Counted from the stretch's first letter, positions 1-57,854 are shown. The stretch: DNA of 57,854 nucleotides from Candidatus Yanofskybacteria bacterium (GCA_016185505.1 JACPNL010000009.1:1-57854), one strand, 5' to 3'. Numbers and translations: made by a program. The notes: generated by a model from the sequence alone, not told the origin.

Positions 1-1349
1 ATCTTTTTCCTCTCAAGACCGGCCAAGGCCTGAAGTTTCATCTCTAATATCGCGGTAGCTTGTTTATCGGAGAATTTGAATTTTTTCACCAAATTATTGA
101 AAGCGTCTTCTTTTGAATCGGATGCTCTGATAATTTTTATTATCTCATCTATATGATCAAGCGCTTTTTTCAGGCCTTCTAAAATATGAGCTCGGTCTTT
201 AGCTTTGTTCAAATCAAATTTGGCGCGCCTTGTCACCACTTCCTTGCGATGGTCAATGAATTTCTCAAGCAATCCTTTCAATCCCAGTATCTGGGGCTGA
301 ATGCCGTCCACCAGAGCCAGCATATTGAAGTGGAACGACTTCTGAAGTTCGGTGTATTTAAAAAGCTGGTTGAGGACTTTCCTCGGAAAAGCGTCTTGTT
401 TAAGGTCTATAGCAATTCTTAAGCCGTCTTTGTCCGATTCATCCCGTATGTCCCTGATGCCGTCCATTTTTTTATCTTTAACCAGATCGGCGATGTGTTT
501 TATGAGTTCGACAACGCTAACTTGATAGGGAATCTCCGTAACGATAATCTGGAAACCTTTTCCGCCAGAGGCGGACCCGCCTCTGGCGGGTTTACCTTCC
601 ATAATTTCGGCCTTGCCCCGCATTATCAGGGGACCTCTACCGGTAGCGTAAGCGTTACGAATGTCGGTCTCGTTATATATGACGCCGCCAGTCGGAAAGT
701 CGGGACCTTTGACGAAGTTCATGAGCTCGGCAACATCGGCATCGGGACGATCGGTCAGCAACATAAGAGCGTCAAGAACCTCGCCCAAATTGTGGGGAGG
801 AATGTTGGTAGCCATACCGACGGCGATACCCATTGAACCGTTTATTAAAAGGTTGGGAACTTTGGTCGGAAGAACTCTTGGCTCTTGGACCGACGCGTCA
901 TAGTTATCTTCAAAATCAACCGTCTCTTTGTCTATATCTTCAAGCAACTCACTAGCGATAGGTGCCATGCGACATTCTGTATAACGCATGCTGGCCGCGC
1001 GGTCATCTCGCGAACCGAAATTTCCTTGACCGTCAACAAGAGGGTAGCGAAGAGAAAAATCCTGAGCCATGCGAACAAGGGAATCATAAATTGCCGCATC
1101 ACCGTGCGGGTGAAATTGGCCCATGCAATAGCCCGTCACTTTTGCCGACTTCTGATATTTGGCGCCAGGTCTCAAACCCATTTCATGCATAGAATATAAA
1201 ATCCTTCTATGAACCGGCTTCAAGCCATCCCTGACATCGGGAAGCGCCCGAGAGACAATAACGCTCATAGCATACTCCAAGTACGCCTGCTGCATCTCTT
1301 CGGTTATCTCGCGTTGTTTGATGTTTTGTTTTATGTTGTCTTCAGCCAT
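1..1349 (-). CDS. gyrA: DNA gyrase subunit A, N-terminal ~449 codons (continues past left edge)
   Basis: Reverse-strand reading from ATG at 1349 gives [55 protein letters not shown] (active-site Tyr context). It is absent from the ORF track because the frame has no stop inside the window. Confidence 0.9.
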
Positions 1350-1551
1350 AAAATGTATCTACATAATACCAAATTTATTACTAAAATTCAACTATAAATT
1401 TTCTCTTTACAAATCAAACTAAAAAGCAAGCGATGCTTGCTTTTTAGTTATTTCTCAAAGCCGACGCTTCGGTTCTCGGAATGGGGCATCGCCCACTCCT
1501 GGGGAACTCTGTCGGCTCCCCGACCCTTTGGCGTCGGGGTTTCTCAATATC

Positions 1552-1950
1552 TTAGTTTCTTAATTTCTTATACTCTGACAACGGCAATGTATAAACTTTC
1601 CCACTTTCAAGCTCTATCTTCTCTTGTTGTTGGTTGTCGGTTGCTGTGTCCCGTACCGTGCTTTGCTCTGGTACTGGGGTCGGTGGTCGGTTCGTGAATA
1701 ACCCCGACACCAGTCCCTTAACTTCACCGACTGACTGCCAGATAAAACCAAATAGCGACGGAGTCGGCGCGTTCTCCACGGCCAGCATTTTATCAACCTC
1801 TTCGGGAGGGTTCATCAGCGCGTAAAGATTTTTCTGAAAAGAGCGGAACCATATCATCCCGATTAATAAAACGGTTACGAAAACCGAGAGACCAAACATT
1901 ATCTCTCTGGTGTGCTGGGGTTGGTTTTTTATGTCGTCAAGAAAGGACAA
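1552..1950 (-). CDS. hypothetical membrane-anchored protein
   Basis: 132-aa ORF with one hydrophobic helix (IMFGLSVFVTVLLIGMIWF). The C-terminal half is encoded partly by a GC-rich repeat that is also present at 16100-16150. Confidence 0.5.
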   Translation of the reverse strand: MSFLDDIKNQPQHTREIMFGLSVFVTVLLIGMIWFRSFQKNLYALMNPPEEVDKMLAVENAPTPSLFGFIWQSVGEVKGLVSGLFTNRPPTPVPEQSTVRDTATDNQQQEKIELESGKVYTLPLSEYKKLRN

Positions 1951-2013
1951 TTTTTGAGCGTGGAGCGTGGAGCGTGGAGCGTGGTCTTAAAACCACATTC
2001 TACTTTCTACGTT

Positions 2014-2697
2014 CTACATGCTAAATACTACTAATTTCATTTCTTCCATCGGCAAATTCTTTTTTGCTATTTTATATTTACCTGCCCCGAGCGAAGCCGA
2101 GGGGTCTACTTTTTCGGGCGTCAGCCCCAATTCCTTTATGAACTTATCGGGTCCGTCTACGTCTATCTTCAAGTCCTTGACCTTGTAGTGCATTGGAATG
2201 ACGATCTTCGGCTCTATCTCTCCTATCGCCTGGACCGCTTCTTTATAATCAATAGTGTACTTGCCTCCGACCGGGAGCATCAATATATCAACATCGCCGA
2301 TATCATCCAGCTGGTTCTTATCAAACTCTGCTTGACCGAAGTCGCCCATATGGCAAATTACCATATCCTCCGCTTTTATTACATATATAGTATTAAGTCC
2401 TCTTTCTTTACCTTCAACTTTATCATGAAACGAAAGAATGCCCCTCACATATATGCCTTGCTTCTCATATTCCCCGGGGCCGTCAATTATCATTGCTTGT
2501 TCAGGAGCGCCCTCCACGTTATTGTGGTCATAATGCTGATGCGTCACCAAAACAAGATCGTCTTTGACGCGAGGCGGCTTCAAACCAATGTCTTTGGAAA
2601 AAGGGTCAATAAGAATACTTGCTTGTCCTGAGCCAGTCGAAGGGCCCCCTTTTGCTTCTATCCTGAAGCAGGAATGTCCGAACCAGGTGATAGTCAT
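2014..2697 (-). CDS. MBL-fold metal-dependent hydrolase (UPF0173-like)
   Basis: MTITWFGHSCF start, HxHxDH-type motif THQHYDH, 227 aa. Confidence 0.75.
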   Translation of the reverse strand: MTITWFGHSCFRIEAKGGPSTGSGQASILIDPFSKDIGLKPPRVKDDLVLVTHQHYDHNNVEGAPEQAMIIDGPGEYEKQGIYVRGILSFHDKVEGKERGLNTIYVIKAEDMVICHMGDFGQAEFDKNQLDDIGDVDILMLPVGGKYTIDYKEAVQAIGEIEPKIVIPMHYKVKDLKIDVDGPDKFIKELGLTPEKVDPSASLGAGKYKIAKKNLPMEEMKLVVFSM

Positions 2698-3963: not shown

Positions 3964-4135
3964 AATCTCCAATCTCCAGAGTCTAAAACCCAAAACACAG
4001 GAACTAAAGCACAAAACACAGAAACCGAAACGTTTGTGTTTTCGGCAGTTTGTGTGCTGTGTTTTATTTGTGTTTTGTGGAATCTGTGCTTTGTGCTTTA
4101 AACTTTAAATTTTTTAGGATTTAGAGATTTTACAA
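3964..4135. repeat. long imperfect hairpin (aaaacacag / ctgtgtttt words) after rpsA
   Basis: aatctccaatctcc..cacaaaacac on the left is mirrored by gtgttttgtg..ggatttagagatt on the right. Confidence 0.55.
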
Positions 4136-4138
4136 AAG

Positions 4139-4167
4139 TTTGACTAAACTTTTGTAATGATGTATAA
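4139..4167 (+). promoter_or_regulatory. near-consensus sigma70 promoter with a palindrome around the -35
   Basis: TTGACT (4139-4144), 17-nt spacer, TATAAT (4162-4167). The -35 sits inside the inverted repeat tacaaaagtt..aacttttgta. Confidence 0.7.
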
Positions 4168-4540
4168 TCTGGACAGTCGTTAGTTCGTTAACCCCGACTC
4201 CGCCTAGGCGGGGCCACAACAAAGTCCTGCTTTCGGGTGGGCAAAGGAGACAATGTGGCCAAAACCACAGCTCCGACGCTTCCGGTCGGAGCCCCGACTG
4301 TCAACGTCGGGGTCGTCGCTACCCCAGGTACCATTCGGCACCTGGCTACGCTCGGGCCGAAAGTTCGGCTCGTGGTATTCAAGTTTTGGGTTCGGAGCGA
4401 ACTGGTGCCGGCCTGCATTCCCCGGCTGCCCATCAACAGGTCTGCTCAACACCAAGGGCGACTACGCATTCGTCGGCGCGAGAGTCGCCGGAGAAAAAAT
4501 CTCAACGAGATTCAAAAAGGGGAAGTCGGTTGACGTCAAG
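4168..4540 (+). ncRNA. GC-rich, heavily hairpinned ~370-nt leader / candidate ncRNA
   Basis: Consecutive stems are ccgc-ctag-gcgg, gtgg-ccaaaa-ccac, ctccgac-N6-gtcggag, ccccgac-N6-gtcgggg, ccaggt-N10-acctgg, cgggcc..ggctcg and ggcgac..gtcgcc. The in-frame translation here is W/R-rich and not protein-like. Confidence 0.4.
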
Positions 4541-4921
4541 ATGAGCGACGTGCGATTCACATTCGTTCATCGAAAGAGCATCAGCAACGCTCCTCCTCAC
4601 AAGAATTTTGTGGAGAGATTCAATCAGCTGGTCAACGCTTTCGTTGACTTTACCAAGTTGAATCTCTGGATGACGGAGGCGTATGTGAATCCGTATCTGA
4701 ACGAAGACGGCACCACCGGCAAGGGCAGTGTACTGATGTTGGATTGCGCCGGTCGCAAAGAAGCCGTCAAGCCGGATGGCAAGCCTGTGATGGCATATGA
4801 AGGTGGTCGAGAGAAGCTGGAAAACGGCTTCACGCAGGGCATTGGCCCGAAGGTTTCCATCTTGAACAAAGCCAGCGAGCTGAAACTCGCCGGCAAAAAG
4901 GTTCAGCTGGTATCACCGTAA
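4541..4921 (+). CDS. hypothetical protein, 126 aa (island cassette 1)
   Basis: First ATG in the protein-like part of the 4253..4921 ORF (MSDVRFTFVHRKS...). A weak purine-rich RBS (aaaggggaag) lies ~15 nt upstream. No family is recognised. Confidence 0.5.
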   Translation: MSDVRFTFVHRKSISNAPPHKNFVERFNQLVNAFVDFTKLNLWMTEAYVNPYLNEDGTTGKGSVLMLDCAGRKEAVKPDGKPVMAYEGGREKLENGFTQGIGPKVSILNKASELKLAGKKVQLVSP

Positions 4922-4958
4922 CCGCCGTATAACTAGCAATTGCTAGTTATACGGCGGT
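4921..4958. repeat. perfect 38-nt palindrome directly after the stop codon
   Basis: accgccgtataactagcaa|ttgctagttatacggcggt, centre GCAATTGC. Confidence 0.9.
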
Positions 4959-4988
4959 ATGAATATTTTGAGCGGACGATGTCCGCCA

Positions 4989-5008
4989 GCCCCGACCACG
5001 GTCGGGGC
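4989..5008 (+). terminator. GC hairpin gccccgac-cacg-gtcggggc
   Basis: 8-bp GC stem followed by a T-rich tract. It belongs to the ccccgac/gtcgggg hairpin family. Confidence 0.5.
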
Positions 5009-5034
5009 ATTCGTTTATTCACTTGCTTACAACT

Positions 5035-5068
5035 GTCTACAGATTCCGCAATTGCGGAATCTGTAGAC
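5035..5068. repeat. perfect 34-nt palindrome
   Basis: gtctacagattccgcaa|ttgcggaatctgtagac, with the same GCAATTGC centre as 4921-4958. Confidence 0.9.
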
Positions 5069-5096
5069 ACACTTCCCGCACATCCGACACAAACAC

Positions 5097-5124
5097 TTGA
5101 CAAAATTTGTGAGAGGAGTATAAT
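5097..5124 (+). promoter_or_regulatory. near-consensus sigma70 promoter
   Basis: TTGACA (5097-5102), 16-nt spacer, TATAAT (5119-5124). Confidence 0.7.
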
Positions 5125-6183: not shown

Positions 6184-6203
6184 CCCCGCGTTCCCGAGAG
6201 CAA

Positions 6204-6235
6204 CCCCTCACCTTTCGAGACCGAAAGGTGAGGGG
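6204..6235 (+). terminator. perfect 14-bp hairpin cccctcacctttcg-agac-cgaaaggtgagggg
   Basis: Read directly from the sequence. It is related to the hairpins at 7940 and 36651. Confidence 0.6.
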
Positions 6236-6241
6236 CACGTA

Positions 6242-7912: not shown

Positions 7913-7939
7913 CATAAAATAGCGGTTTAGCCGCAATTC

Positions 7940-16095: not shown

Positions 16096-16184
16096 AACCC
16101 CGGAAACCCCAGCACCAGAGCAAAGCACGGTGCGGGGCACAGCACGAAAGGAACGGAGGGCACAGAAGAACGTCAAGGTACATA

Positions 16185-18745: not shown

Positions 18746-20014
18746 TCACACCTTGTATCTCTTTCTTAAATCCTTGATTATTTTGGGTAAAACTTTCAAC
18801 ACATAATCTATATCCTTCTTCGTTGTGTGTCTGCCCATAGAAAACCGTAGGGCCCCATCCAAATATTTTTTATCCAACCCTATGGCTTTAAGTACATGAG
18901 ACGGTTCAACCGAATGCGAGGTGCAGGCCGAACCGCTTCCGGCACAGATGCCGTATTTATCAAGTTCTAATAAAAGAATCTCACTCGTTAAACCGGGAAC
19001 CGATATATTCACGTTATTCGGCAACCTGTGGATAAACGACTTCGCAAGTCGTTTATCCACAGGGCCGTTGATTTTAACGTCTGGCAACAATCGCTCTATT
19101 TTTTCAATAAAAAAGTCCCTTAGGCCCCCAACTCGCTCCCCTTCTTTACTTTCTATCCTGTCCAGAGCAACGACTAGCCCGCCGATAGCCATCAGATTCT
19201 CGGTCCCGGCCCTCAAACCCGCCTCTTGTTCTCCGCCCAGCAAGACAGAAGAGATATTAACCCCTTTCCTTACGTACAAAACACCTATTCCTTTCGGGCC
19301 ATAAATTTTGGAGCCGTTAAAAGTAAGCAGATCAACACCCAGACGATTAACGTTCATGTCCAGGTATTCCGTCGCCTGACAGGCATCGACGTGAAAAATT
19401 GGAAATTTTTCACGTCGGAGATTTCGATATTTCGACCCGCCAGAGGAACGGGCAGGTATTTCGATATTTCCATCGCGAAAATCTCGAATTACTTTCGAGA
19501 TTTTCGCGATCGGCTCTATGGTGCCTATCTCGTTATTAGCGTACATGACAGACACGAGAACTGTTTCCGGTCGCAGAGTTTTTTGCAATTCGTCGATATT
19601 TACAAACCCCTCTTTGTCAACCGAGAGATACGAAACGTCAAAACCCTCTTTCTCGAGTCGCTCTATCGGCCTTAACACTGACGGATGTTCTATCTTAGTA
19701 GTGACAATATGTGGTTTTAATTTAGGTTGTAGCGCAGTAACGCAGTAGCGCAGTAGGTTTTTTGCGATTCCTTGAATCGCAAGGTTATTGGCTTCTGTTC
19801 CAGAGGTGATAAAAGTTATCTCGTCAGAATGCGTACCGAGAAACCTTGCCACTTTAAGCCGAGCTTTTTCTAAATATTCGCGCGCCTGTCTGCCGCAGTC
19901 GTTGTATGAAGAAGGGTTGCCGTAGAACTTGGCAGCTTTGACCATCTCCGTGACAACCTTTTTATCTATTGGGGTAGAGGCGGCGTTGTCTAGATAGATT
20001 GTTTTATTACGCAT
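18746..20014 (-). CDS. cysteine desulfurase (NifS/IscS-like) carrying three in-frame repeat insertions
   Basis: IYLDNAASTP, FTSGTEANN, HVDACQ, SGSACTS motifs. The start is set at ATG 20014. Confidence 0.85.
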   Translation of the reverse strand: MRNKTIYLDNAASTPIDKKVVTEMVKAAKFYGNPSSYNDCGRQAREYLEKARLKVARFLGTHSDEITFITSGTEANNLAIQGIAKNLLRYCVTALQPKLKPHIVTTKIEHPSVLRPIERLEKEGFDVSYLSVDKEGFVNIDELQKTLRPETVLVSVMYANNEIGTIEPIAKISKVIRDFRDGNIEIPARSSGGSKYRNLRREKFPIFHVDACQATEYLDMNVNRLGVDLLTFNGSKIYGPKGIGVLYVRKGVNISSVLLGGEQEAGLRAGTENLMAIGGLVVALDRIESKEGERVGGLRDFFIEKIERLLPDVKINGPVDKRLAKSFIHRLPNNVNISVPGLTSEILLLELDKYGICAGSGSACTSHSVEPSHVLKAIGLDKKYLDGALRFSMGRHTTKKDIDYVLKVLPKIIKDLRKRYKV

Positions 20015-22436: not shown

Positions 22437-23873
22437 TTACTTTTCGTCTTTATTGTCGTCTGTCTCTGTCCGAGTACTGTCCGCGTCTGTCTGCGTTATT
22501 TCAGTAAATCCGACCTTTTCCTTCGGCGACCTGACATCTATCTTCCATCCGGTAAGTTTGGCCGCGAGGCGGACATTTTGTCCCCTCTTGCCTATGGCCA
22601 GCGAGAACTGGTCGTCAGAGACCTCAACAAGGACATGCCTTCTGTTTTCATCTAAGACCTTGACTTCAAGAATTTTGGCGGGAGAAAAAGAATTAGCTAT
22701 GAATTCCGCCACCTTTTCGCTCCACAAGATTATATCTATCTTTTCGCCGGCCAGCTCGTTTATGACCGTCTGTACTCTAACGCCTTTCTGCCCGACAAGA
22801 GAACCGATCGGGTCAACTCCACTCTCCTTTGAGACAACGGCTATTTTAGTTCGTGAACCGGCTTCTCTGGCAACAGCTTTGACCTCGACAGCTCCGCTAT
22901 CTATCTCGGGAACTTCCATCATAAACAACCCATAAACCAGATCCGGATGAGATCTTGACAAGACCACTACCGGGCCCCTAGACGTCTCATCAACCTTCAA
23001 TATCAAAAACCTCAACCGCGAACCAATCCTGTAGTTCTCTCCGGGTACTTGCTCCGCAGTTGTAAGTATCCCATTCGTTTTGCCAATATCAATAAAAACG
23101 AGAGGTCCTTCTTTTCTTTGAATAATACCGCTGACTATTTCGCCTTCCTTTTTCTTAAATTCTTCAAATATAGCATTCCTTTCGGCCTCCCTTAACCGCT
23201 GTATAACGACCTGTTTGGCCGTTTGAGCGGCAATGCGCCCAAAGTCAGTATGGGTCTCAAGTTCGGTAATAAGCTCGTCACCGATCTTTATCTTCTTCTT
23301 AATCTTTTTGGCGTCATCGAGAAGGATATGTTTTTCGGGGTTAAATTTAACTTCCCCCGTGCCGATATCGTCCCGACTCTGTCGAGGATCCTCGATGGCT
23401 TTGCCATCGGGACCTTCCGTTGAATCATGTCCCCCTTGCCCCCGCGGCTTAACGTGCCTATCAACCCCGTTAGAAGTAGCCGTGCCACGGTCCTCCGGAC
23501 TCGCGACTTTGTCGCGAGCGCGACTTCTAACGGGGTCAACTTCGCCTGCCTGCCCGCCTGCGCGGACAGGCGCAGGCAGGGTAGCGGGACGCTCGGCAAA
23601 ATCAGGTTTTTCTTCAACCAGTTTTAACGGCAACTCTCCGGTTAAGTTGCCCTCTTCATCAACGCTTTCAACCACATAGTGAACCTGGGAGATCTTTATG
23701 TCTCCCGTCTCCGGGTCAAGCTTGGCTCTGACTATTTGGCCCTTTTTGCCGTAGTCCCTCTTGTAAGCAGCCGCAATGGCCGCTTCAACGGTCTCCAAAA
23801 CGCTCTGTTCAGGTATTCCCTTCTCTTCGGCAATCTGCTTTATCGCTAGTAAGAATTCTTTTATATCCAACAT
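22437..23873 (-). CDS. nusA: transcription termination/antitermination factor NusA with a ~80-aa in-frame insertion
   Basis: N-terminal domain, S1 and two KH regions are recognisable. The segment ERPATLPAPVRAGGQAGEVDPVRSRARDKVASPEDRGTATSNGV.. is encoded by GC-rich palindromic elements. Confidence 0.9.
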   Translation of the reverse strand: MLDIKEFLLAIKQIAEEKGIPEQSVLETVEAAIAAAYKRDYGKKGQIVRAKLDPETGDIKISQVHYVVESVDEEGNLTGELPLKLVEEKPDFAERPATLPAPVRAGGQAGEVDPVRSRARDKVASPEDRGTATSNGVDRHVKPRGQGGHDSTEGPDGKAIEDPRQSRDDIGTGEVKFNPEKHILLDDAKKIKKKIKIGDELITELETHTDFGRIAAQTAKQVVIQRLREAERNAIFEEFKKKEGEIVSGIIQRKEGPLVFIDIGKTNGILTTAEQVPGENYRIGSRLRFLILKVDETSRGPVVVLSRSHPDLVYGLFMMEVPEIDSGAVEVKAVAREAGSRTKIAVVSKESGVDPIGSLVGQKGVRVQTVINELAGEKIDIILWSEKVAEFIANSFSPAKILEVKVLDENRRHVLVEVSDDQFSLAIGKRGQNVRLAAKLTGWKIDVRSPKEKVGFTEITQTDADSTRTETDDNKDEK

Positions 23874-25005: not shown

Positions 25006-26730
25006 ATGGCCGACGAAAAATCGCAGAACAAAAACACCAGACGCAGCCCCGTTCAAAAGAAAGAGGAAGAACTGGAGAAAAAACTCGCGGAGATACAACA
25101 GAAAGAAGCAGAAGACAAATACAAGATACTTGCTCAACAGTTAAATCTTCCTTACTCCGACCTCGTATCAATCCCCGTCGATACTGACGCGTTATCTTTG
25201 TTAAACGAGGAAGAGGCTCGTTCAGCCAACATCGCTGTAATATTCAAAAAGGACTCAAAGATCATCGTCGCGGCAACGGACCCGGCCAACCCCACGACTC
25301 AAAAAATTATTTCCCGGCTGAAAGAAGATCGCGAAGTTGAGGTCATTTTAACAAATCCCCGATCCCTTCAAAATATCCTGAAAAGATACCAAGACATAAA
25401 AAAGGCAGAGACCTTTGAGATCGGGGCGATAGAGATACAAGAAGGAGAACTAGATAGATTGGAGAAAGAAATAAACAACACTTCCGACCTTAAAAGCCGG
25501 CTGCAAAAAGTCTCAACTACCGGCTTACTGGAATTATTAGTAGCCGGCGCCTTAAAGACCGGGGCATCAGATGTCCACCTTGAGCCGGAATCAAATTCTG
25601 CCCGTCTACGATACCGTATTGACGGTTTACTGCACGATATCGCCGTTATAGACAGACATCCTTATGAAAAGGCCCTAGACAGAATAAAGGTCCTGTCTAA
25701 AATGAAACTGAACGTCAGGGGCGTACCGCAAGACGGCCGTTTTACGATCAGACAAAAAAGCGTGTCTATAGAAGTCAGGGTCTCCGTTTTACCCAGCGAG
25801 TTTGGCGAAACAATAGTGATGCGTCTTTTGGACCCCAGAACGATCAAACAAGACATTGGAGAACTGGGTATGAGAGATGACTTGCTTAATAAGGTCAAAG
25901 AGGTCCTGAAAAAACCGACAGGAGCTATACTTACAACCGGTCCAACTGGCTCCGGTAAGACCACTATGCTGTACGCCTTTGTGAATCACCTAAACTCGCC
26001 GGACAAAAAAATAGTAACCATAGAGGACCCTATTGAGTACCACATTGAGGATATATCTCAAACCCAAGTTGACGCGCGCAGAGGATATACTTTCGCTAAC
26101 GGGTTAAGAGCCATCGTCAGACAAGACCCCGATATTATGCTTGTCGGAGAGATAAGAGATACTGAAACGGCCGATATCGCTTTACAAGCCGCCCTGACCG
26201 GGCATTTGGTATTATCCACTATTCACACAAATGACGCTGCCGGCACTGTCCCCCGCTTAATAGACCTCGGGATAAGGCCTCAAATAATAGCCCCAGCTAT
26301 AAATATGGCAATGGCCCAGCGCCTGGTCAGGAAATTATGTCCAGAATGTAAAAAAATGCGGAAAGCAGAAGAAGCTGAACTAAAAAAGTTACAGGAGGTA
26401 TTGGGACCCCTATCGAAATATCGAAATGTCGATATGCCTGCCCGTTCCTCTGGCGGGCCGAAATATCCCAAACTGGATGCCGGTTTGGAGATAGGCACTC
26501 CCGGAAAATGCAAAGAATGCAATGAATCGGGCTACAAAGGGCGTATCGGCGTTTTTGAGGCCTTTGAAATGTCGCGAGAAATAGAGAGATTAATATTGAA
26601 GTCGCCGGCAATATCAGAGGTGAGGGATCTAGCCATAGCCGAAGGAATGATAACGATGTTGCAGGATGCGTATATTAAATTGATCGAGGGAGTGACGTCG
26701 ATGGAAGAAATAGAGAGAGTATTGGGCTAA
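25006..26730 (+). CDS. type II secretion / type IV pilus assembly ATPase (GspE/PilB family)
   Basis: GSPII_E N-domain-like repeats, Walker A GPTGSGKTT, CPECK..CKEC zinc cluster. The in-frame insertion reads SKYRNVDMPARSSGGPKYPK. Confidence 0.85.
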   Translation: MADEKSQNKNTRRSPVQKKEEELEKKLAEIQQKEAEDKYKILAQQLNLPYSDLVSIPVDTDALSLLNEEEARSANIAVIFKKDSKIIVAATDPANPTTQKIISRLKEDREVEVILTNPRSLQNILKRYQDIKKAETFEIGAIEIQEGELDRLEKEINNTSDLKSRLQKVSTTGLLELLVAGALKTGASDVHLEPESNSARLRYRIDGLLHDIAVIDRHPYEKALDRIKVLSKMKLNVRGVPQDGRFTIRQKSVSIEVRVSVLPSEFGETIVMRLLDPRTIKQDIGELGMRDDLLNKVKEVLKKPTGAILTTGPTGSGKTTMLYAFVNHLNSPDKKIVTIEDPIEYHIEDISQTQVDARRGYTFANGLRAIVRQDPDIMLVGEIRDTETADIALQAALTGHLVLSTIHTNDAAGTVPRLIDLGIRPQIIAPAINMAMAQRLVRKLCPECKKMRKAEEAELKKLQEVLGPLSKYRNVDMPARSSGGPKYPKLDAGLEIGTPGKCKECNESGYKGRIGVFEAFEMSREIERLILKSPAISEVRDLAIAEGMITMLQDAYIKLIEGVTSMEEIERVLG

Positions 26731-27146: not shown

Positions 27147-28238
27147 ATGGGTGTCAACCACTCAAACTTAATCCCTCAAACCACTCCTGATGACCAGGTT
27201 TTAGACAACGCGCTCCGGCCTAAGACGTTCGGTGAGTATGTTGGTCAAAATAACATTAAGGAGAACTTAAGAATCGTCATCGGAGCAGCAAAGAAGAGAA
27301 ACGAGCCGGTGGAACACCTGTTGTTTCACGGTCCTTCCGGTCTTGGTAAAACTACGCTGGCTTATTTGGTGGCAAAAGAACTTGGCGCCAACATCAGAGT
27401 CACTTCCGGTACGGCACTGGAGAAAGCCGGAGACGTCGGCTCTATTTTAACCGGTTTAAGCGACGGGGATATTCTTTTCATAGACGAAGTCCATCGCCTC
27501 AATAAAGCCGTAGAAGAAGTCATATATCCGGCTATGGAGAATTTCAAGTTGGATATAGTTATCGGCAAAGGCAACTCGGCAAAGACATTGCAGATAGACC
27601 TCCCCCGCTTCACCCTTATTGCCGCCACAACTAAGATATCCATGCTTTCGGCCCCATTCAGATCAAGGTTCGGCGCCAACTACCGGCTAGACTTCTACAA
27701 TCAAAGCGACATAGAAGAAATTGTCTCTAGGTCAGCGCGTCTTCTTAATGTAAACATTGAAAAAGAGGCAATTAAAGAAGTTGCTCTTGCCTCAAGGTTC
27801 ACGCCCAGAGTCGCGAACCGGCTCTTAAAGAGGGTTCGTGATTTTAGCCAAATGGATCCCGAACGAAGTAGCCGCGCCAGCGGTCCCGAAGGGACTCACG
27901 ACTCTGTCGCGAGCGCGACTTCGTACGGGATGGATGACACTTACATCACCGCCAATACCGCACAAAAGGCCTTAAAGATGCTTGAGATAGACGACAAAGG
28001 CCTTGAAGAAACAGATAGAAAAATACTGCTGGCTATAGTCAACAACTTCGATGGCGGCCCTGCCGGCCTTAAGTCCGTCGCCGCATCCATATCGGAAGAA
28101 GAAAGCACGATAGAGGATGTCTACGAACCGTACCTAATGCAGATGGGATTCCTCGCAAGAACTCCGAAAGGAAGAGTGGTTACGTCCCGAGGGTTTGAAC
28201 ACTTAGGGTTAAAAAACAAAAAGCCAAAACTCCTATGA
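27147..28238 (+). CDS. ruvB: Holliday junction helicase RuvB with in-frame palindromic insertion
   Basis: LRPKTFGEYVGQ, GPSGLGKTTLA, DEVHRL. The insertion reads DPERSSRASGPEGTHDSVASATSYGMD. Confidence 0.9.
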   Translation: MGVNHSNLIPQTTPDDQVLDNALRPKTFGEYVGQNNIKENLRIVIGAAKKRNEPVEHLLFHGPSGLGKTTLAYLVAKELGANIRVTSGTALEKAGDVGSILTGLSDGDILFIDEVHRLNKAVEEVIYPAMENFKLDIVIGKGNSAKTLQIDLPRFTLIAATTKISMLSAPFRSRFGANYRLDFYNQSDIEEIVSRSARLLNVNIEKEAIKEVALASRFTPRVANRLLKRVRDFSQMDPERSSRASGPEGTHDSVASATSYGMDDTYITANTAQKALKMLEIDDKGLEETDRKILLAIVNNFDGGPAGLKSVAASISEEESTIEDVYEPYLMQMGFLARTPKGRVVTSRGFEHLGLKNKKPKLL

Positions 28239-28783
28239 GCGGGCACTCAAAGTGGGCGCAAATTCGCCACAAGAAAGCACTGACTGACCAAAAGCGTGGC
28301 CAGATATTTTCTAAGTTCTCAAAAAACATTACACTTGCCGCGCGAAAGGGTACCGACCCTAAAACAAATATTGCCTTAGCCAACGCCATTGAACAAGCGC
28401 GGCGAGAGAATATGCCGAATAACAACATTGAGCGGGCTATCAAAAAAGCATCGGAAAAAGACAGTACACAGTTGGAAGAATTTGTTGTAGAGGCAATCTG
28501 GACCGGCGCCCTCCTTCGCCAAGGCTTCGGAAGGCAGGGGGTTGCTTTGAGAATAAAAGGTGTTACCGACAACAAAAACCGCGCCATCTCGGAAATTAAG
28601 ACAGTTCTTTCGGGCCATGAAGCAAAGATGGTCCAGCCGGGAAGCATCGGCTGGATGTTCACCTCCCCCCTTCAAGTTAATGAACAGACGCAACAGAAAA
28701 TTGATGAGCTACTCGAAGCGTTAGATAATCTTGATGACGTTAGTGATATCATCTTAAATTTAAAATTAAAAAATCAAAATTAA
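28235..28783 (+). CDS. yebC: YebC/PmpR family transcriptional regulator
   Basis: MSGHSKWAQIRHKK start. Confidence 0.85.
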   Translation: MSGHSKWAQIRHKKALTDQKRGQIFSKFSKNITLAARKGTDPKTNIALANAIEQARRENMPNNNIERAIKKASEKDSTQLEEFVVEAIWTGALLRQGFGRQGVALRIKGVTDNKNRAISEIKTVLSGHEAKMVQPGSIGWMFTSPLQVNEQTQQKIDELLEALDNLDDVSDIILNLKLKNQN

Positions 28784-37489: not shown

Positions 37490-37668
37490 TTATACTAATT
37501 AACCTAATTATTCTAATCAAATCCCAATGTCTAATTACGAAATGCTTAAAACGTTTTAGACATTAGTCGTTAGGTTATTGGGATTTATTTAGGTCAACTC
37601 CGACGCTTGCGGTCGGAGAGCCGACTGATAACGTCGGCTTTAGAGCAATTAGAATAATTAGAAATTAA
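37478..37668. repeat. AT-rich long hairpin (aattaacctaatt family) with a GC double-hairpin element nested at 37598-37638
   Basis: The left arm encodes the last rnpA codons and its stop. The right arm is interrupted by ctccgac..gtcggag + agccgac..gtcggc. Confidence 0.75.
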
Positions 37669-51593: not shown

Positions 51594-52383
51594 TGGTTTA
51601 GTGACAGATTTTCTGCTCGGGCATCGGGTTTTATGTCTAGTTTATTAAATACCTCGAGCAGTTCTTCCTTCATGATACCAAATTTTTTAGTCAAGTTTCC
51701 TGCTAGTTGTTTCCTCTTCCCCGCGAAAGCGGTTTTGATAAGCTTAAAAACCTTTTCCCTTAATTCATAATTAATAATTCTTGATTCTCGATGAGGCGTT
51801 AGCCGAATGATTGCCGAATCAACTTTTGGCATTGGCCGGAAACTGCCTCGCGATACATAACTAATAATTTTCGGTTCCGCGTAAAATTGGACCGACAAGG
51901 CGAGGAGATTCATATGCGGCGGTTTTGCCACGATTCTTTGGGCTACTTCTTTTTGGACTGTTAGTACAATAAGTTTTGGTTGTGGCCAGTCCTCTAGTAT
52001 TTTCCGTATTAAATTTGAAGTTATGTAATACGGTATATTGCCGACAACCTTGTAGTTATTGTTTGAAAATTTGAAAATTGAAGAATTGATTGAAAATTGA
52101 AAATTGGAAATTTGAGAATATCCCCTTCCACAATCTCAACGTTGGTGTTTTTTCCGCCTTCGACGGAAAATTTTTTCTTAAGTTCTTCGACTAAACGGCG
52201 GTCTTTTTCTACGGCGATAACCCGGCCGGCTTCTTGAACCAATTTTTCAGTGAGGACCCCTGTGCCTGGTCCTATCTCAAGAACGATATTATTCTTTTTC
52301 AACTCGGCGGCTTTGACTATCTTGTCTAGCACCCCTTTGTTAACTAGAAAGTTCTGCCCCAGCGACTTTTTGGCTTTGAACAT
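51551..52383 (-). pseudogene. rsmA: 16S rRNA dimethyladenosine transferase RsmA/KsgA with a frame break in a low-complexity linker
   Basis: The N-terminal frame reads KSLGQNFLV..EIGPGTGVLT..VEGDIL. The C-terminal part (YKVVGNIPYYITS..VQKEVAQR..) is in the -1 frame. The switch lies within the (t)ttcaa(t)ttt repeats at about 52046-52115. Confidence 0.7.
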
Positions 52384-52431
52384 AGCAAATTTCCTGTGGA
52401 TAAACGACTTGCGAAGTCGTTTATCCACAGG

Positions 52432-54483
52432 TTAGTAATAAATTTTCTCCTCATCGTCAAAATCAACTCCGCCCGTTTCAAATGAAGCAAGGTGCGCCGG
52501 TATTTCTCCCAGAAACCTGGACGGAAGATTGGACTGGGTTGAGCCGAAAATGTTTCGGTACTTTGTGAAAGTTAGAATCAGTTTTTCTTTGGCTCTGGTG
52601 ATGGCTACATAGCAAAGCCGTCTCTCCTCTTCCAGTTCGTCGGGGTAAAACAGAGTTCTTGAGTGCGGGAACAGTCCTTCCTCAAGACCGATAATGAAGA
52701 CAACCGGGAATTCAAGGCCTTTTGAGGCGTGGGTGGTCATCAGGGTTATCTTATTATCTGTATTTTTAACGCGGTCCATATCTTGAAGTAAAGCGATTTC
52801 TTCTAGGAATCTGGCCATTCCTTCGGAACACGAATTGGCGTTATCGTACTTTCTGGCAACAGTGAGAAGCTCTTTTAGATTTTCCATTCGGTCTTCAAAG
52901 TTCTCAAAGTCGTCGGCTCTTAAGGCGTAAAGGTTTTTTAAATAATCCTCATAATTTATTCTTTTTATAACGTACTTGATTAATTCACTGACTTTTTTTG
53001 TTTCGGCGGCTTTGTCAATATCGGTTAGCGTCCTATAAAATTCTGAAACCGATTTCGACTGCTTTGGTGGTAGCTCTTTGCCCTTGGTTAGCGACTCTAA
53101 AGCGGCCAGTATATTAATTCTTTCAATTTTGATTTTTGATTTTCCCTCGACCTGAGCTCGGGACGAAGGTTGATTTTTGATCTTGTCCAGTAGGACGTCG
53201 CCTATCCCCCGCGGAGGTACATTGTATATTCTTTCAAAACTGATGATATCAGCCGGGTTTGTTAGAAATTTAAGGTAAGCGAGAATGTCTTTAATTTCCT
53301 TTCTCTCATAGAACTTGATGCCTCCGACTATATGATAAGGGAATCCCGCCGATATAAGCGCTTCTTCCACGGCGCGGGACTGGGCGTGGGTTCGGTATAG
53401 AATTACAAAGTCATTTGGCTTTCGTCCTTTTTTGGCCATATCTCTAATTGTGGATACAACGAAACCTGCTTCCTGCCGTTCGTTCAGAAGTTCTTTGGCT
53501 AATATTTTCTCCCCCTCGTCGTTGTCGGTCCACAACTCCTTAGGTACTTGGTTTTTATTATTGGAGATAAGGTGGCTGGCGGCGATTATGATGCTTTTGG
53601 TTGAACGATAATTCTGTTCCAACATCACAACTTTCGCATCGGGGTAGTCCTTTTGGAAATTCAAAATATTTCTTATGTCGGCCCGTCTGAACATGTAAAT
53701 GGCCTGTGAGTCGTCACCAATGACAAATAAATTTCTGCTTATTTTGGCCAACAAAGATACAAATTCATACTGGTCTCGGCTCGTGTCCTGATACTCGTCA
53801 ACGAGTATGTATTTCCAGAGATTCTGATATTTTTTGAGTGTTTCGGGGTTGTTTTTAAAAATTTTTACACAAAGAACAATAAGGTCGTCAAAGTCAACTG
53901 CGTTAAGGCGTTTTAACTCTTCCTGGTAGCGTTTATAGATATTGCCCACTATCTTTTCAAAAAATTCTTCTGAAGGCGCGTCTTTTGGTTCAACGAACTC
54001 TGTTTTCAGACGTGATATTCTGCCAAGTACCGCCTTGGGGTTAGTTTTCTTGCTGTCCAGTTCCAGTTCGGTGATTATTCTTTTAACCAAACTCACCTGG
54101 TCATCGGCGTCAAAAATAGTGAAGTTGCTTCCGTAGCCGAGGTGGTGGATTTCTCTCCTTAAAATTTTGAGGCCTATGGAGTGAAAAGTGCCGATGATCG
54201 GAGGTTGTAGCGCAGTAGCGCAGTAGCGCAGTAGCGAATCAACTCGCCCGTGCATTTCGCCGGCCGCCTTATTTGTGAACGTCAGAGCTAAGATGTTTTC
54301 GGGACTGATCCCCGTTGAAATTAGGTGGGCGACTCTATGGGTAAGGCACTTGGTCTTCCCGGAACCCGGACCGGAGATAACTAAAACCGGACCGTCAATT
54401 GTCTTGACGGCCTCAAGCTGTTTGTCGTTCAAATCGTGGAATATTTTGTTCATTTCTGGTAATATTTCCAGCAATGGTTTCAA
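52432..54483 (-). CDS. UvrD/PcrA-type ATP-dependent DNA helicase
   Basis: GPGSGKT, TFTNKAA, DEYQDT, VMLEQNYRS, TTHASKGLEF, VAITRA. An in-frame octamer-repeat insertion reads LLRYCATALQP. Confidence 0.9.
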   Translation of the reverse strand: MKPLLEILPEMNKIFHDLNDKQLEAVKTIDGPVLVISGPGSGKTKCLTHRVAHLISTGISPENILALTFTNKAAGEMHGRVDSLLRYCATALQPPIIGTFHSIGLKILRREIHHLGYGSNFTIFDADDQVSLVKRIITELELDSKKTNPKAVLGRISRLKTEFVEPKDAPSEEFFEKIVGNIYKRYQEELKRLNAVDFDDLIVLCVKIFKNNPETLKKYQNLWKYILVDEYQDTSRDQYEFVSLLAKISRNLFVIGDDSQAIYMFRRADIRNILNFQKDYPDAKVVMLEQNYRSTKSIIIAASHLISNNKNQVPKELWTDNDEGEKILAKELLNERQEAGFVVSTIRDMAKKGRKPNDFVILYRTHAQSRAVEEALISAGFPYHIVGGIKFYERKEIKDILAYLKFLTNPADIISFERIYNVPPRGIGDVLLDKIKNQPSSRAQVEGKSKIKIERINILAALESLTKGKELPPKQSKSVSEFYRTLTDIDKAAETKKVSELIKYVIKRINYEDYLKNLYALRADDFENFEDRMENLKELLTVARKYDNANSCSEGMARFLEEIALLQDMDRVKNTDNKITLMTTHASKGLEFPVVFIIGLEEGLFPHSRTLFYPDELEEERRLCYVAITRAKEKLILTFTKYRNIFGSTQSNLPSRFLGEIPAHLASFETGGVDFDDEEKIYY

Positions 54484-55336: not shown

Positions 55337-55768
55337 ATGGAATCTTTGCTTAAAAATCAAAATATTTTGGAAAGATCTGAAGCAAAGGAAACAGTAATGA
55401 ATCTTTCGGGGGTTGAAGCGGTTTTGAAATACGACGCCTTAAAAGGCATGAAAAAAGAGTGGTCTTTGCCTGGAGTTCTCTCCTCTTATCTAATGGAGAA
55501 CGAAGAGAATGAAAAATTAGTTATCAAAAAACTTAAAAGAGTTATTGAGGGGAGAAACAAAGAGTTTACTGTTCTTAATGTCAAAGATCTAAATAACCAA
55601 GGTAGGATAAAGGCGACTATTTTTATAGAGTGGAATTTAGATATGGATCCGGAAGCTTTTATTAATCCTGGTTTTAACCCTAGTCTTGAACGAGCGGGCC
55701 TTTTTATAAGATCAATGAATATTACCGCGAGTTCTGCGGTAATAGCCAAATTAAAAGAACTCTTCTAG
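55337..55768 (+). CDS. hypothetical protein, 143 aa
   Basis: ORF track entry; no recognisable motif. Confidence 0.45.
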   Translation: MESLLKNQNILERSEAKETVMNLSGVEAVLKYDALKGMKKEWSLPGVLSSYLMENEENEKLVIKKLKRVIEGRNKEFTVLNVKDLNNQGRIKATIFIEWNLDMDPEAFINPGFNPSLERAGLFIRSMNITASSAVIAKLKELF

Positions 55769-56203
55769 CTACTTTTCCCCAGTGCTTCCGAATCCGCCTC
55801 TATTTTTTGCTTTCAATTTCGGTACTTCTTGCCATAAAGCGCGAGTGAATTTCACAAATATTCCTTGCGCTATTCTTGCGCCTTTTTCTACGACTACCGT
55901 TTTCCTTGTGAAGTTATATAACGGTACGGCATATTCGTCATTATCCCCTCTATAATCAGGGTCCCCTATGCCTATTCCGTGGGCAGGCATAAGGCCATAT
56001 TTGTGAGTTGAGCCACGAGCGGCGATAAACAATATATGGTCTTTAGGCGTCTCAACGGCCACGTTGAGTGCGATATACCCGACTTGCCTGGGTTTAATCG
56101 TTCTCGTTTCTCTGGCAGTTAAGTCAAAACCAACAGCCCCGGTGGTTTTATATTCCGGCAAAGGGAGATTTTTATCAAAACGTTTAATCTTTATTCTCTT
56201 CAT
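55769..56203 (-). CDS. dut: dUTP diphosphatase
   Basis: GAVGFDL, GIGDPDYRGDNDEY, RIAQ, RGGFGSTG. The start is set at ATG 56203. Confidence 0.8.
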   Translation of the reverse strand: MKRIKIKRFDKNLPLPEYKTTGAVGFDLTARETRTIKPRQVGYIALNVAVETPKDHILFIAARGSTHKYGLMPAHGIGIGDPDYRGDNDEYAVPLYNFTRKTVVVEKGARIAQGIFVKFTRALWQEVPKLKAKNRGGFGSTGEK

Positions 56204-56387
56204 TACTACCAACTACAAATTACAAATAACAACAAATGTACAAATTTTACAACTTACTACTAATTACAAATTTAACAAATATACAAATCTACAAATAAAT
56301 AAAATTCGTAGATTAGTACATTCGTAAAGATTCGTAATTTGTAGGATTTTGTAGATTCGTATATTCGCGCAGATTTGTAATTCGTAG

Positions 56388-57854
56388 TTAGACATAGTAT
56401 TTCTTCATTCTTGCTTCCTCCTCTTTTTTCTGGGCTTCTTCTATTTTTTTCAGTGACTCTCTCAATTCCTCCGGCGTTTTTTTATCTAATTCGTGGGTTC
56501 TTTGTCTTAAGTACTCTTTCTTATTTCTTGTTGGGTCGTTCAGTACTTCAGCAAGGAGGTAATTTAATATAAGGCCGATTTTTGGTCCAGGTTTAATGCT
56601 CAATTCTTTCATCAGTTCATCGCCGTTAATTTGGAGCATTTTAACGGAAATTGGGTCGTGGGAAACCTTGTCTATAATATATTTCATGTGACGCAGTTTG
56701 TACGGTACTGCTTTTGGTCTTCCTGAGCCAATCCGGTCCGCTTCGCGAACTTTTATCAGGTCTTCCATATTATCTTTGCCGACGTTCGCCATAAGCCGTC
56801 TGACCGATGATTCGGTTACTTCCCCGACGTTATAGAAAAACATATGATAGCGGACTAATTTTACCACTTGCTCCGTGATGTCTTTGGGAAATTTCAGCCG
56901 TTCCATAATTTGGGCAACCATTTTGGCGCCGATTACCTCGTGACCGTAAAAAGTTGAATGCAATCCCTCGCCCCTCTTGGAGCGCGGCTTGCCGATATCG
57001 TGGAAAAGAGCCGCAAGACGGACTTCCAGAGAATATTTTTTATCCGCGGCATACTTTAAAGCTCGGGCGCAATGTTCCCACACGGTATAGATGTGATGCA
57101 GGTTTTGTTCTACGCCGATACCTTCGTGCATTTCCGGAACCACGTATTGTAAAAGGCCGGTTTCTTCAAGCAGCAGCACTCCCTCATAGGCGCTGTCGGA
57201 TTCGATGATCTTAATAAACTCGTCCCTTATCCTCTCCTTTGATATGATCCTGATCCATTCGGCATTCTCTTTTACCGCGGCCAGCGTCTTTTCCTCGATA
57301 TTAAAACCTAAAACAGTTGCAAAGCGAATAGCGCGTAATAACCGAAGAGCGTCTTCGTTAAATCTTTCCTTGGGATTGCCTACAGTTCGGATAACTTTTT
57401 TGTTCAGGTCTTTTTGTCCGTCAAATAGGTCTATTAGTGTAAAATTCGAAGCACGAATATCGAAATTCGAGACAATATCTAAATCAGGATTTTTAAATTC
57501 TAAACGTTTTGAATTTTTAGAATTAGTGTTTTGAATTTGTTTCGTATTTCGTATTTCGTATTTCGGATTTATGCTCAATGCCATTGCATTGATTGTGAAA
57601 TCACGTCTGGAGAGGTCATCTTCCAGCTTTTCGGCAAATTTTATTTCATCAGGATGCCTTTTGTCCGTGTACTTGCCCTCAATCCGATACGGCGTTACTT
57701 CTACTACCGCCAAGGTCGAATTTTTTGAACCGGTCTTAATTCCCACTGTTCCAAAGGTATTTTCATACGTTGCATCATAGTCAGCCCCGACGCTGTCGGT
57801 CGGGATCCTGACCTCGCCTTGCGAGCGTCGGGAGAAAATCTTCTGTATCTCTTC
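56388..57854 (-). CDS. cca: CCA-adding tRNA nucleotidyltransferase with HD domain (N-terminus beyond right edge)
   Basis: DFTINAMAL, RFNEDALRLLRAIRFA, LFHDIGKP. The frame stays open upstream of the track start through to 57854. It carries two in-frame repeat insertions. Confidence 0.85.
   Translation of the reverse strand, partial: EEIQKIFSRRSQGEVRIPTDSVGADYDATYENTFGTVGIKTGSKNSTLAVVEVTPYRIEGKYTDKRHPDEIKFAEKLEDDLSRRDFTINAMALSINPKYEIRNTKQIQNTNSKNSKRLEFKNPDLDIVSNFDIRASNFTLIDLFDGQKDLNKKVIRTVGNPKERFNEDALRLLRAIRFATVLGFNIEEKTLAAVKENAEWIRIISKERIRDEFIKIIESDSAYEGVLLLEETGLLQYVVPEMHEGIGVEQNLHHIYTVWEHCARALKYAADKKYSLEVRLAALFHDIGKPRSKRGEGLHSTFYGHEVIGAKMVAQIMERLKFPKDITEQVVKLVRYHMFFYNVGEVTESSVRRLMANVGKDNMEDLIKVREADRIGSGRPKAVPYKLRHMKYIIDKVSHDPISVKMLQINGDELMKELSIKPGPKIGLILNYLLAEVLNDPTRNKKEYLRQRTHELDKKTPEELRESLKKIEEAQKKEEEARMKKYYV

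Follow-up and report, generated by a model that had tools for sequence, protein, structure and literature searches.

GC-rich hairpins that spread through compact, AT-rich genomes and enter coding regions are familiar from mitochondria, in the form of GC clusters, double-hairpin elements, and byp elements; the ribosome jumps over the last of these, and they are not required to be in frame. Among bacteria, the Rickettsia palindromic elements (RPEs) are ~100 to 150 bp long, form about ten families, and belong to a single alphaproteobacterial genus (Ogata et al. 2000, 2002, summarised in PMC10969869 and PMC3733652). RPEs and the repetitive extragenic palindromes (REPs) of the GTAG/CGTC type are found in frame in housekeeping genes, often those for DNA replication or repair (PMC10969869, PMC3733652). 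REPs are mostly extragenic, some copies in replication or repair genes encode 20 to 30 amino acids, and mobilization of REPs and REPINs by a single-strand HUH transposase has been proposed (PMC3733652, PMC3116915). [quoted passage not shown] In Nematomorpha mitochondria, coding palindromes of up to 284 bp extend over conserved protein regions and are not dispersed families (PMC6649704). Here, we analyzed a 57.9-kb stretch of DNA from a Candidatus Yanofskybacteria bacterium (JACPNL010000009.1:1-57854; "the window" below means this whole stretch of 57,854 nucleotides [nt]), in which short repeat modules, most of them hairpins, lie in the spacers and inside conserved genes.

We consider it likely that this genome carries several families of short, non-autonomous repeat modules, placed in spacers and at loop or linker positions of proteins. 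One family would consist of GC-rich mini-hairpins of 15 to 40 nt, another of MITE-like elements of 48 to 80 nt with 12- to 13-bp terminal inverted repeats and inner hairpins, and a third of tandem arrays of 7- to 9-nt units, which often build long AT-rich array palindromes; these AT-rich array elements are part of the same phenomenon as the GC-rich modules. The modules would fill the spacers and, within genes, occupy positions of conserved proteins that tolerate insertions and deletions.

To delimit the inserted segments, each site was compared with orthologues of solved structure (PDB) and then with syntenic relatives. Syntenic loci were taken from Yanofskybacteria assemblies (six to eight genomes with proteins 75 to 92% identical; loci are labeled L001, L003, L032 to L036, and so on, and homologous proteins carry P numbers). 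Because these loci could be retrieved, and because the top named matches of the window IscS are Candidatus Yanofskybacteria proteins (74 to 76% identity), the host is classed as a Yanofskybacteria-like bacterium of the candidate phyla radiation (CPR, or Patescibacteria). Extra DNA segments were found in ten conserved genes (gyrA, a metallo-β-lactamase-fold [MBL] hydrolase gene, iscS, nusA, pilB, ruvB, yebC, uvrD, cca, and rsmA) and in one hypothetical ORF (Table 1). The solved-structure orthologues lack these segments or have shorter loops in their place, and the closely related Yanofskybacteria proteins often lack them too. GyrA is 9 amino acids longer at its insert than Staphylococcus aureus GyrA, the MBL hydrolase has 8 amino acids more than TM0207, and RuvB has ~27 extra residues between its lid and winged-helix parts compared with PDB RuvB. 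The PilB-like ATPase is ~23 amino acids longer near its zinc-binding region than its solved-structure orthologue. IscS site 1 faces an 8-amino-acid gap in PDB orthologues, the 25 amino acids of site 2 (residues 183 to 207) are present in no PDB homologue, and the 41 amino acids of cca insert 1 are missing from PDB CCA-adding enzymes. UvrD gains a net 3 amino acids relative to PcrA, although the repeat is present.

A first-pass annotation of the window had described GC-rich palindromic mini-elements, repeated in frame in many essential genes and also intergenically, and had suggested orthologue alignments and shuffled controls as checks. All the sites it listed were reexamined, and copies were indeed found in both spacers and genes; unrelated bacteria and several close relatives lack the segments, and the DNA copies align far better with each other than shuffled sequences do. 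Its wording was otherwise too narrow or inexact at several points. Most segments are hairpins, but cca insert 1 is AT-rich (26% GC), and iscS site 1 and the MBL segment are not hairpins. The nusA insertion is real and spans ~105 amino acids (23340-23654), between positions that are adjacent in Thermotoga maritima NusA; the first-pass annotation gave ~80. Of the two cca segments listed, 57440-57572 is an insertion, and 57785-57833, a diverged member of a repeat family, is a candidate insertion. The apparent concentration in essential genes may partly reflect the fact that inserts can be delimited only in conserved genes.

The repeats are far more frequent than composition would predict. A blastn-short search (E ≤ 1e-4) found 49 dispersed pairs and 17 self-palindromes in the window and none in any of 20 composition-preserving block shuffles. 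Tandem Repeats Finder reported 80 non-overlapping arrays (10.8 in shuffles), and 44 of these had a period of 7 to 9 nt (4.4 in shuffles). Hairpins with stems of at least 6 bp were hardly enriched (34 versus 21), and a quantization of module lengths at 15 or 21 nt was discarded, as the length histogram of GC hairpins matched that of the shuffles except for stems of at least 8 bp. When segments were folded as RNA and compared with dinucleotide shuffles, 9 of the 16 insert segments tested gave z scores between -3 and -7.5 (-4.9 for the gyrA insert; see Table 1 for others). In nearly every spacer, two arrays of 7- to 9-nt units face each other and make an AT-rich palindrome of 60 to 190 nt. Examples lie at 1951-2013, 20066-20209, 23875-24015, 26731-26868, 28757-28858, 32914-33053, 37008-37150, 43438-43536, and 56213-56387; transitions frequently distinguish the two arms, and G-T pairing then makes one strand the better folder.

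The intragenic copies share sequence with intergenic copies, with segments in other genes, and with other CPR genomes. The iscS site-3 hairpin has an exact inverted counterpart in a spacer (Table 1), and the module in ORF 1552-1950 is 92% identical over 39 nt to spacer DNA at 16106-16144, again in inverted orientation; peptides like the one it encodes occur in IscS homologues as PVPEQSMVRGTA (P0014, site 2) and PVPDPAKAGTVRGTA (P0011, site 1). Between genes, iscS site 1 is 97% identical to uvrD 54202-54234 (33 nt), iscS site 2 is 85 to 91% identical to the pilB copy (91% over 45 nt), and the nusA and ruvB elements are 89% identical over 38 nt. The ruvB element is bounded by 12-bp terminal inverted repeats, CCCGAACGAAGT and ACTTCGTACGGG, that are complementary at 11 of 12 positions. 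Modules of the window's types recur in loci of other CPR genomes: 13-mers akin to those of the gyrA insert were found in L016, L021, L025, and L035 as well as at window position 17696, and the core of nusA 23370-23413 was found in the iscS gene of L035, in L016, and at window position 17970. No second copy of the MBL hydrolase insert was found within the window; its DNA is akin to the STSSGQ insert of the L033 IscS, and related peptides occur in IscS and RsmA homologues. The second cca segment aligns with 4262-4316, 37589-37643, and 1455-1545, and two double hairpins of the same kind are 87.5% identical to each other (4271-4310 versus 37598-37637).

Comparison with relatives shows that the intragenic copies are real insertions, with gains and losses over short evolutionary times. 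At the ruvB site, the window, L003, and L033 carry an element, and L001, L032, L034, and L035 have none. Filled sites share related outer stems, distinguished by paired changes, but have different inner hairpins. The element is flanked by two copies of ATGGAT in the window and two of ATGAAT in L033, and the empty sites have a single ATGNNN hexamer (ATGGAT in L034 only). Independent insertions with a 6-bp duplication are therefore suggested, and we keep this as suggestive only because the flanking repeats of other elements are 4 or 7 bp long. The yebC site is filled in two of six genomes, the window and L032, the latter with a longer variant, and is empty in L001, L003, L033, and L034. Two blocks of the nusA insert totaling ~50 amino acids are present only in the window among six syntenic genomes, the five close relatives being without them. 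Arrays in pilB occur in three genomes (window, L003, and L033), and L001 and L034 have neither arrays nor core. Since L003 and L033 carry arrays without the 21-nt core CCTGCCCGTTCCTCTGGCGGG, the core in the window's pilB is a clean 21-nt insertion without target duplication; among the syntenic genomes, the core is confined to the window at the pilB site and at the iscS site alike. No internal indels were seen in tig and ruvC among the syntenic genomes.

The modules also return to the same hot spots and nest in earlier modules. Thirty IscS homologues range from 381 to 471 amino acids around a core of ~380, and three sites hold inserts that differ between lineages. Site 1 carries different arrays, or none, in other genomes; at site 2, relatives L032 and L033 have arrays without the 21-nt core; and the site-3 hairpin is missing from L035 and L036. 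In both iscS and pilB, the core lies between TCGAAATA units, and in relatives GC modules sit midway in AGCCATC or AACCTAC arrays. We had entertained the idea that the 7- to 9-nt arrays are accumulated target-site duplications or excision footprints; it was rejected because AGCCATC and AACCTAC recur at separate sites and are missing from those sites when empty.

The 21-nt module CCTGCCCGTTCCTCTGGCGGG was followed beyond the window. An exact match was found in 7 of ~185,000 species genomes, all 7 of them CPR (two Nomurabacteria, two Paceibacterota, one Yanofskybacteria, one Saccharibacteria, and one unclassified Patescibacteria record), and in 21 metagenome loci; none was present in the viral contigs searched, and no variant with up to 5 mismatches was present in the 148 kb scanned. 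The exact 21-mer occurs once or twice per genome or locus sampled. Its hosts are unrelated: ribosomal protein bL21, a protein that is transketolase-like by its motifs, a reverse transcriptase (just after YADD), IscS, PilB, and, in three genomes, a further protein without an assigned family. In bL21, it occupies the same position, after IEKIK, in a Saccharibacteria locus (L008, 1070-1090) and a Paceibacterota locus (L010, 7699-7719) with diverged flanking codons, which implies either repeated site-specific insertion or horizontal exchange. The flanks of 25 copies share a G at -1 (21/25), a T at -2 (16/25), and an A at +1 (14/25) and otherwise show no similarity.

All six frames of the 21-mer are free of stops, yet the copies are not read at random. 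In long ORFs, 11 of 12 sense copies are read in the PARSSGG frame, and 4 of 6 antisense copies are read in the RQRNGQ frame; the sole off-frame sense copy sits in the hydrophobic N-terminal segment of an ORF. When orthologous sites were counted once, 8 of 9 sense events were in the common frame, a preference that implies selection on the encoded peptide. The first 9 matches had suggested a strict sense orientation. This was abandoned because at least 6 antisense metagenome copies lie in long ORFs, and only the frame preference within an orientation is retained. The 21-mer thus combines a length that is a multiple of three, no stop in any frame, and one preferred frame with complete (100%) conservation across several named CPR lineages and repeated hits at the same site (bL21 and the protein found in three genomes). 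A broader proposal, which we regard as doubtful and put forward only tentatively, is that CPR carry a lineage-wide and still active DNA-level system that writes, copies, and perfects hairpin modules and 7- to 9-nt arrays, and that at least one of its modules, the 21-mer, has become adapted to ORFs. If so, it would represent a new class of mobile element specialized for the coding space of genomes with little intergenic DNA.

The inserts bear the marks of a filter on reading frame. Sixteen of the 17 window inserts keep the frame, and all 16 are free of stops in the frame of their gene. The AT-rich cca insert 1 is open in one of six frames, and this is the gene's own; by comparison, the 13 intergenic array palindromes of at least 99 nt have stops in all six frames (78 of 78 frames closed). 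In an AlphaFold model of IscS, the three insert sites (residues 93 to 95, 184 to 201, and 320 to 329), along with five other segments, have a predicted local distance difference test score (pLDDT) below 50. Rfam detected no intron or ribozyme at any insert site; its only matches in the window are tRNAs and one group I intron elsewhere. Frame retention, the distribution of stop codons, the frame preference of the 21-mer, and this Rfam result together make removal at the RNA or protein level unlikely, and the inserts most likely remain in the mRNA and are translated. They would then appear as short, mostly hydrophilic loops, with selection keeping only those copies that have a length divisible by three and an open, tolerable frame.

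The palindromes are maintained as palindromes. The iscS site-3 hairpin is identical at 39 of 39 positions in the window, L001, and L003, where flanking synonymous sites differ, and in L033 and L034 a near-perfect palindrome is kept through paired substitutions. Six of the 18 stem pairs have changed on both sides and none on one side only, as a wobble pair would require; 95.6% of cells are paired, compared with 21 to 44% in slid controls. In the palindrome at 19472-19510, compared over 7 genomes, 8 of 16 pairs likewise carry paired changes. Selection for hairpins at the RNA level was considered and rejected because folding shows no preference for the sense strand, either in coding sequence, where the summed folding energies of the inserts are about equal (-417 kcal/mol sense, -423 kcal/mol antisense), or in intergenic array palindromes, where the more stable strand is independent of the direction of transcription. 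Paired changes with almost no wobble intermediates and the lack of a sense-strand preference lead us to favor upkeep at the DNA level, whether by correction templated by a hairpin or cruciform or by recopying among family members, over selection on mRNA structure. As to how modules move, a hairpin-recognizing single-strand HUH transposase, of the REP-associated tyrosine transposase (REP/RAYT) or IS200/IS605 type, would fit the 21-nt module because that module is a single hairpin, inserts without duplicating its target, and prefers a short 5′ flank. For the elements with terminal inverted repeats, a transposase of the target-duplicating kind might be suitable.

Several observations weigh against the view that the segments are dispersed, mobile modules translated within their host genes. 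No Pfam match to a transposase or other mobilizing gene was found among the ten unassigned window ORFs scanned, in a contig that represents 58 kb of the genome, and the window yielded no insertion sequence (IS) element. Direct repeats beside the larger elements measure 6, 4, and 7 bp, a spread at odds with a single transposase. Fold signal was missing from four segments (iscS site 1, both MBL segments, and a 42-nt cut of yebC, whose full 55-nt segment folds at -19.8 kcal/mol). The IscS model is of moderate quality (mean pLDDT, 68), and the case for translation is a statistical one drawn from sequence. The first-pass annotation described the segments as leaving the frame unbroken, and this is true of all inserts except the rsmA array (52052-52110; 59 nt), the only one of the 17 that breaks it. 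The rsmA (ksgA) gene at 51551-52383 on the minus strand is thereby divided into two ORFs whose frames are shifted by 2 nt, both halves being otherwise intact. Among 19 relatives, this loop varies in length but stays in frame, and some of them have array-like peptides there (e.g., QPTIYNLKPTT in P0124). The split could reflect a recent pseudogene, a sequencing error in low-complexity DNA, or recoding. Finally, three palindromes have an arm made of native codons (19472-19510, 19387-19417, and ftsH 10539-10563), which points to generation in place rather than insertion.

This last point belongs to an alternative in which nothing moves: slippage makes the arrays, template switching or fold-back synthesis makes the palindromes, and the likeness between copies arises through gene conversion or convergence. 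Besides the native-codon arms in iscS and the conserved ftsH motif encoded as a near-perfect palindrome, it would account for stems kept perfect by paired substitutions without wobble intermediates, for the ~10-fold enrichment of arrays, and for the missing transposase and the unequal flanking repeats. It does not explain the spread. Identical 21-nt and 41-nt sequences lie at unrelated loci, the exact 21-mer is found in unrelated proteins of several named CPR lineages with dissimilar flanks and a defined 5′ preference, its pilB copy is a clean insertion, and the units AGCCATC and AACCTAC appear at different sites that lack them when empty. We therefore judge in-place origin unlikely as a general explanation, and such a process probably contributes to palindrome upkeep. 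Somewhat less probable still is that the segments are functional cis-elements under selection, that is, CPR-wide protein binding sites, DNA uptake signals, or RNA structures for translation or decay. Nucleotide-level conservation of the 21-mer across named CPR lineages, the identity of the 39-mer in three species despite differing flanking synonymous sites, and compensatory changes in stems would all be expected of such elements, and the lineage has a gene for a PilB-like ATPase of type IV pilus assembly. Against this, presence and absence vary among close relatives at every site, the families are many and unrelated instead of a single motif, RNA folding favors neither strand with respect to transcription, and the exact 21-mer occurs just once or twice per genome sampled.

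Removal or skipping of the inserts, by mRNA splicing, by ribosome bypass as in T4 gene 60 and the mitochondrial byp elements, or by protein excision, had been raised as an alternative by the first-pass annotation. Hairpins in an AT-rich coding background do resemble byp elements, and the rsmA array is out of frame between intact flanking parts. The frame and stop codon statistics speak strongly the other way: the 16 in-frame inserts are all stop-free, the AT-rich cca insert is open only in the frame used while its intergenic counterparts are closed throughout, and the 21-mer has a strong frame preference. The inserts also share no boundary motifs, match no Rfam intron or ribozyme, and, at 7 to 50 amino acids, are far too short for inteins, so we consider removal very improbable. 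An artefact of assembly or sequencing in this metagenome-assembled contig is the least credible explanation of all. The rsmA frameshift falls within a low-complexity array, a plausible place for indel errors, but the same sites and modules recur in independent NCBI, ENA, JGI, and Logan assemblies. Dispersed repeat modules thus remain the reading that we prefer.

Table 1. Repeat modules and related palindromes in the window (z, RNA folding z score against dinucleotide shuffles)
Feature	Coordinates	Strand	Description
gyrA insert	562..589	-	28-nt GC hairpin; two complementary 13-mers, CCGCCAGAGGCGG / CCGCCTCTGGCGG
Hypothetical-ORF module	1642..1680 (in ORF 1552-1950)	-	39 nt; peptide PVPEQSTVRDTA; z -3.3
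Intergenic copy of ORF-1552 module	16106..16144	.	92% match to 1642-1680
MBL hydrolase insert	2623..2646	-	24 nt; GPSTGSGQ; non-hairpin (z +0.4)
Double 21-nt hairpin	4268..4310	.	CTCCGACGCTTCCGGTCGGAG + CCCCGACTGTCAACGTCGGGG; left edge of GC-rich island
iscS site 3	19025..19063	-	39-nt hairpin with perfect 18-bp stem; encodes PVDKRLAKSFIHR; z -7.5
iscS coding palindrome, 31 nt	19387..19417	-	Conserved FHVD codons are part of one arm
iscS site 2	19405..19479	-	TCGAAATA tandem units around 21-nt GC core CCTGCCCGTTCCTCTGGCGGG (19436-19456, PARSSGG); z -3.4
iscS coding palindrome, 39 nt	19472..19510	-	Left arm consists of native codons (IAKIS)
iscS site 1	19724..19756	-	(CTACTGCG)x3 tandem array within AACCTAC-type array; LLRYCVTALQ; non-hairpin (z -1.2)
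nusA insert region	23340..23654	-	Three GC-rich modules
nusA 44-nt element	23370-23413	-	z -2.5
nusA 71-nt element	23465-23535	-	13-bp terminal inverted repeats CCCCGTTAGAAGT / ACTTCTAACGGGG; z -2.2
nusA hairpin module	23553-23580	-	z -5.95
pilB insert	26411..26470	+	TCGAAATA-type units and 21-nt core (26437-26457); z -3.1
ruvB insert	27852..27935	+	72-nt element (27858-27929) with inner hairpins; ATGGAT direct repeat on both sides; z -3.35
yebC insert	28499..28539	+	WTGALLRQGF, 30 nt; bulged palindrome 28509-28539
Double 21-nt hairpin	37595..37637	.	Intergenic; nested in one arm of AT-rich array palindrome 37478-37667
rsmA array	52052..52110	-	59-nt AT-rich 7-mer array in variable loop; shifts frame, splits gene
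Intergenic copy of iscS site-3 hairpin	52393..52433	.	uvrD-rsmA spacer; 41/41 nt identical to 19023-19063, inverted
uvrD insert	54202..54236	-	(CTACTGCG)x3.8 array; LLRYCATALQP; z -3.4
cca insert 1	57440..57572	-	133-nt AT-rich (26% GC) array palindrome, like the intergenic ones; z -3.7
cca segment 2	57782..57833	-	Diverged member of CCGACGCT..GGTCGG / CCGAC..CGTCGG double-hairpin family; z -2.45; candidate insertion

The ftsH palindrome (10539-10563) deserves mention beside those in Table 1. Its 25 nt form a near-perfect palindrome that encodes the conserved FtsH motif LLGGYAAEK, which means that native coding sequence can be palindromic too; it may have arisen by chance, since Gly GGC and Ala GCC are complementary, or be a product of the process that perfects the other palindromes. 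Two larger repeats were also noted. One of 70 nt (93% identical) precedes ruvB (27045-27114) and dnaA (36421-36490) and is also present at 41570-41602; the other, of 79 nt (92% identical), has one copy downstream of doxX (20592-20670) and a second at the 5′ end of tig (22303-22381). Shared leaders or promoters are possible readings, as are additional families of elements.

The window otherwise has the content of a core genome region of ~43% GC outside its GC-rich island. It contains gyrA, ftsH, iscS, tig, nusA, murI, pilB, genes of the ruvABC region, tyrS, a penicillin-binding protein gene, dnaN, dnaA, rnpA, yidC, uvrD, rsmA, and cca, together with nine tRNA genes and one group I intron. The dnaN and dnaA genes adjoin rnpA and yidC (33432-37150), and the cumulative GC skew has its minimum at ~34 to 36 kb; the replication origin is probably at ~36.4 to 37.1 kb, in a stretch full of array palindromes. 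The island at ~4000-8200 has a GC content of 54 to 56%, gave no Pfam matches except for one MBL-fold protein, and holds perfect palindromes at 4921-4958, 5034-5069, and 7992-8023; it may be foreign or mobile DNA. The tRNA-Ile gene at 11085-11157 has, according to ARAGORN, the anticodon UAU, which is unusual for bacteria. The group I intron (13549-13861, minus strand; 68 bits in Rfam) lies beside the tRNA cluster, abuts a tRNA-like 18-mer (13859-13876), and is followed by a 253-amino-acid ORF (13945-14706) with weak Pfam matches; ARAGORN found no spliced tRNA for the exon junctions tried. In relative L033, TyrRS (668-2002) has a 53-amino-acid insertion with a CxxC...CxxC pattern, unlike the repeat modules, that looks like a zinc-ribbon domain.

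Frequent, fast-turning inserts in core genes of CPR, where IscS homologues vary between 343 and 471 amino acids, affect alignments, orthology calls, and structure predictions, and CPR proteins are widely used in tree-of-life and metabolic reconstructions. DNA-driven inserts of this kind would explain many of the odd low-complexity loops of CPR proteins, and strongly reduced genomes could carry a dense load of selfish or self-propagating DNA lodged in the surface loops of essential proteins, which extends a phenomenon regarded as characteristic of Rickettsia. Palindromes that change by paired substitutions, nesting at hot spots, and an identical 21-nt module point to an uncharacterized DNA transaction and provide concrete test sequences for it in a lineage with almost no experimental genetics.

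In the literature searched, no paper connects REPs, REPINs, MITEs, or in-frame palindromes to CPR, Patescibacteria, or Parcubacteria, and none contains PARSSGG. The resemblance to RPEs drawn by the first-pass annotation is a good one as an analogy: in both cases, palindromic repeats occur in the spacers of a small genome and in frame in unrelated housekeeping genes, and in both translation, placement at tolerated positions, and a selfish origin are presumed. They are not RPEs themselves. The modules here are only 15 to 80 nt long (133 nt for the AT-rich array type), they nest and hit the same hot spots again, they include 7- to 9-nt tandem arrays, and the host is a CPR bacterium and not a member of Rickettsia or the Rickettsiales; length and host set them apart.

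REPs and REPINs are closer in size, being imperfect palindromes of 20 to 40 bp that are often arranged as inverted pairs, much like the 21-nt core, the doublet in gyrA, and the double hairpins of 21 nt, and HUH-type mobilization would suit a 21-mer with no target duplication and a short 5′ flank preference. However, the 21-mer bears no GTAG or CGTC tag, and the CGTC of the CCGAC family lies inside the stem. No RAYT was detected among the ten unassigned window ORFs, which sample 58 kb of the genome, and the copy number of the exact 21-mer looks low at one or two per locus sampled. Neither an association with tandem arrays nor a frame preference has been described for REPs. The ruvB and nusA elements look like MITEs, with their 12- to 13-bp terminal inverted repeats, short flanking direct repeats, and added peptide, but the elements here are shorter, their flanking repeats vary in length (6, 4, or 7 bp; none for the 21-mer), and they have no known parent IS. 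As in Nematomorpha, perfect inverted repeats lie in coding sequence with both arms translated and with palindrome and protein preserved together; the Nematomorpha palindromes are long, mitochondrial, and placed on conserved regions, whereas these modules are short, dispersed, and bacterial. Compared with byp elements, the frame statistics favor translation by read-through. Relative to all of this known kin, what is unusual is the very small size of the modules, their nesting, their tandem arrays, and the identity of one module across several named CPR lineages.

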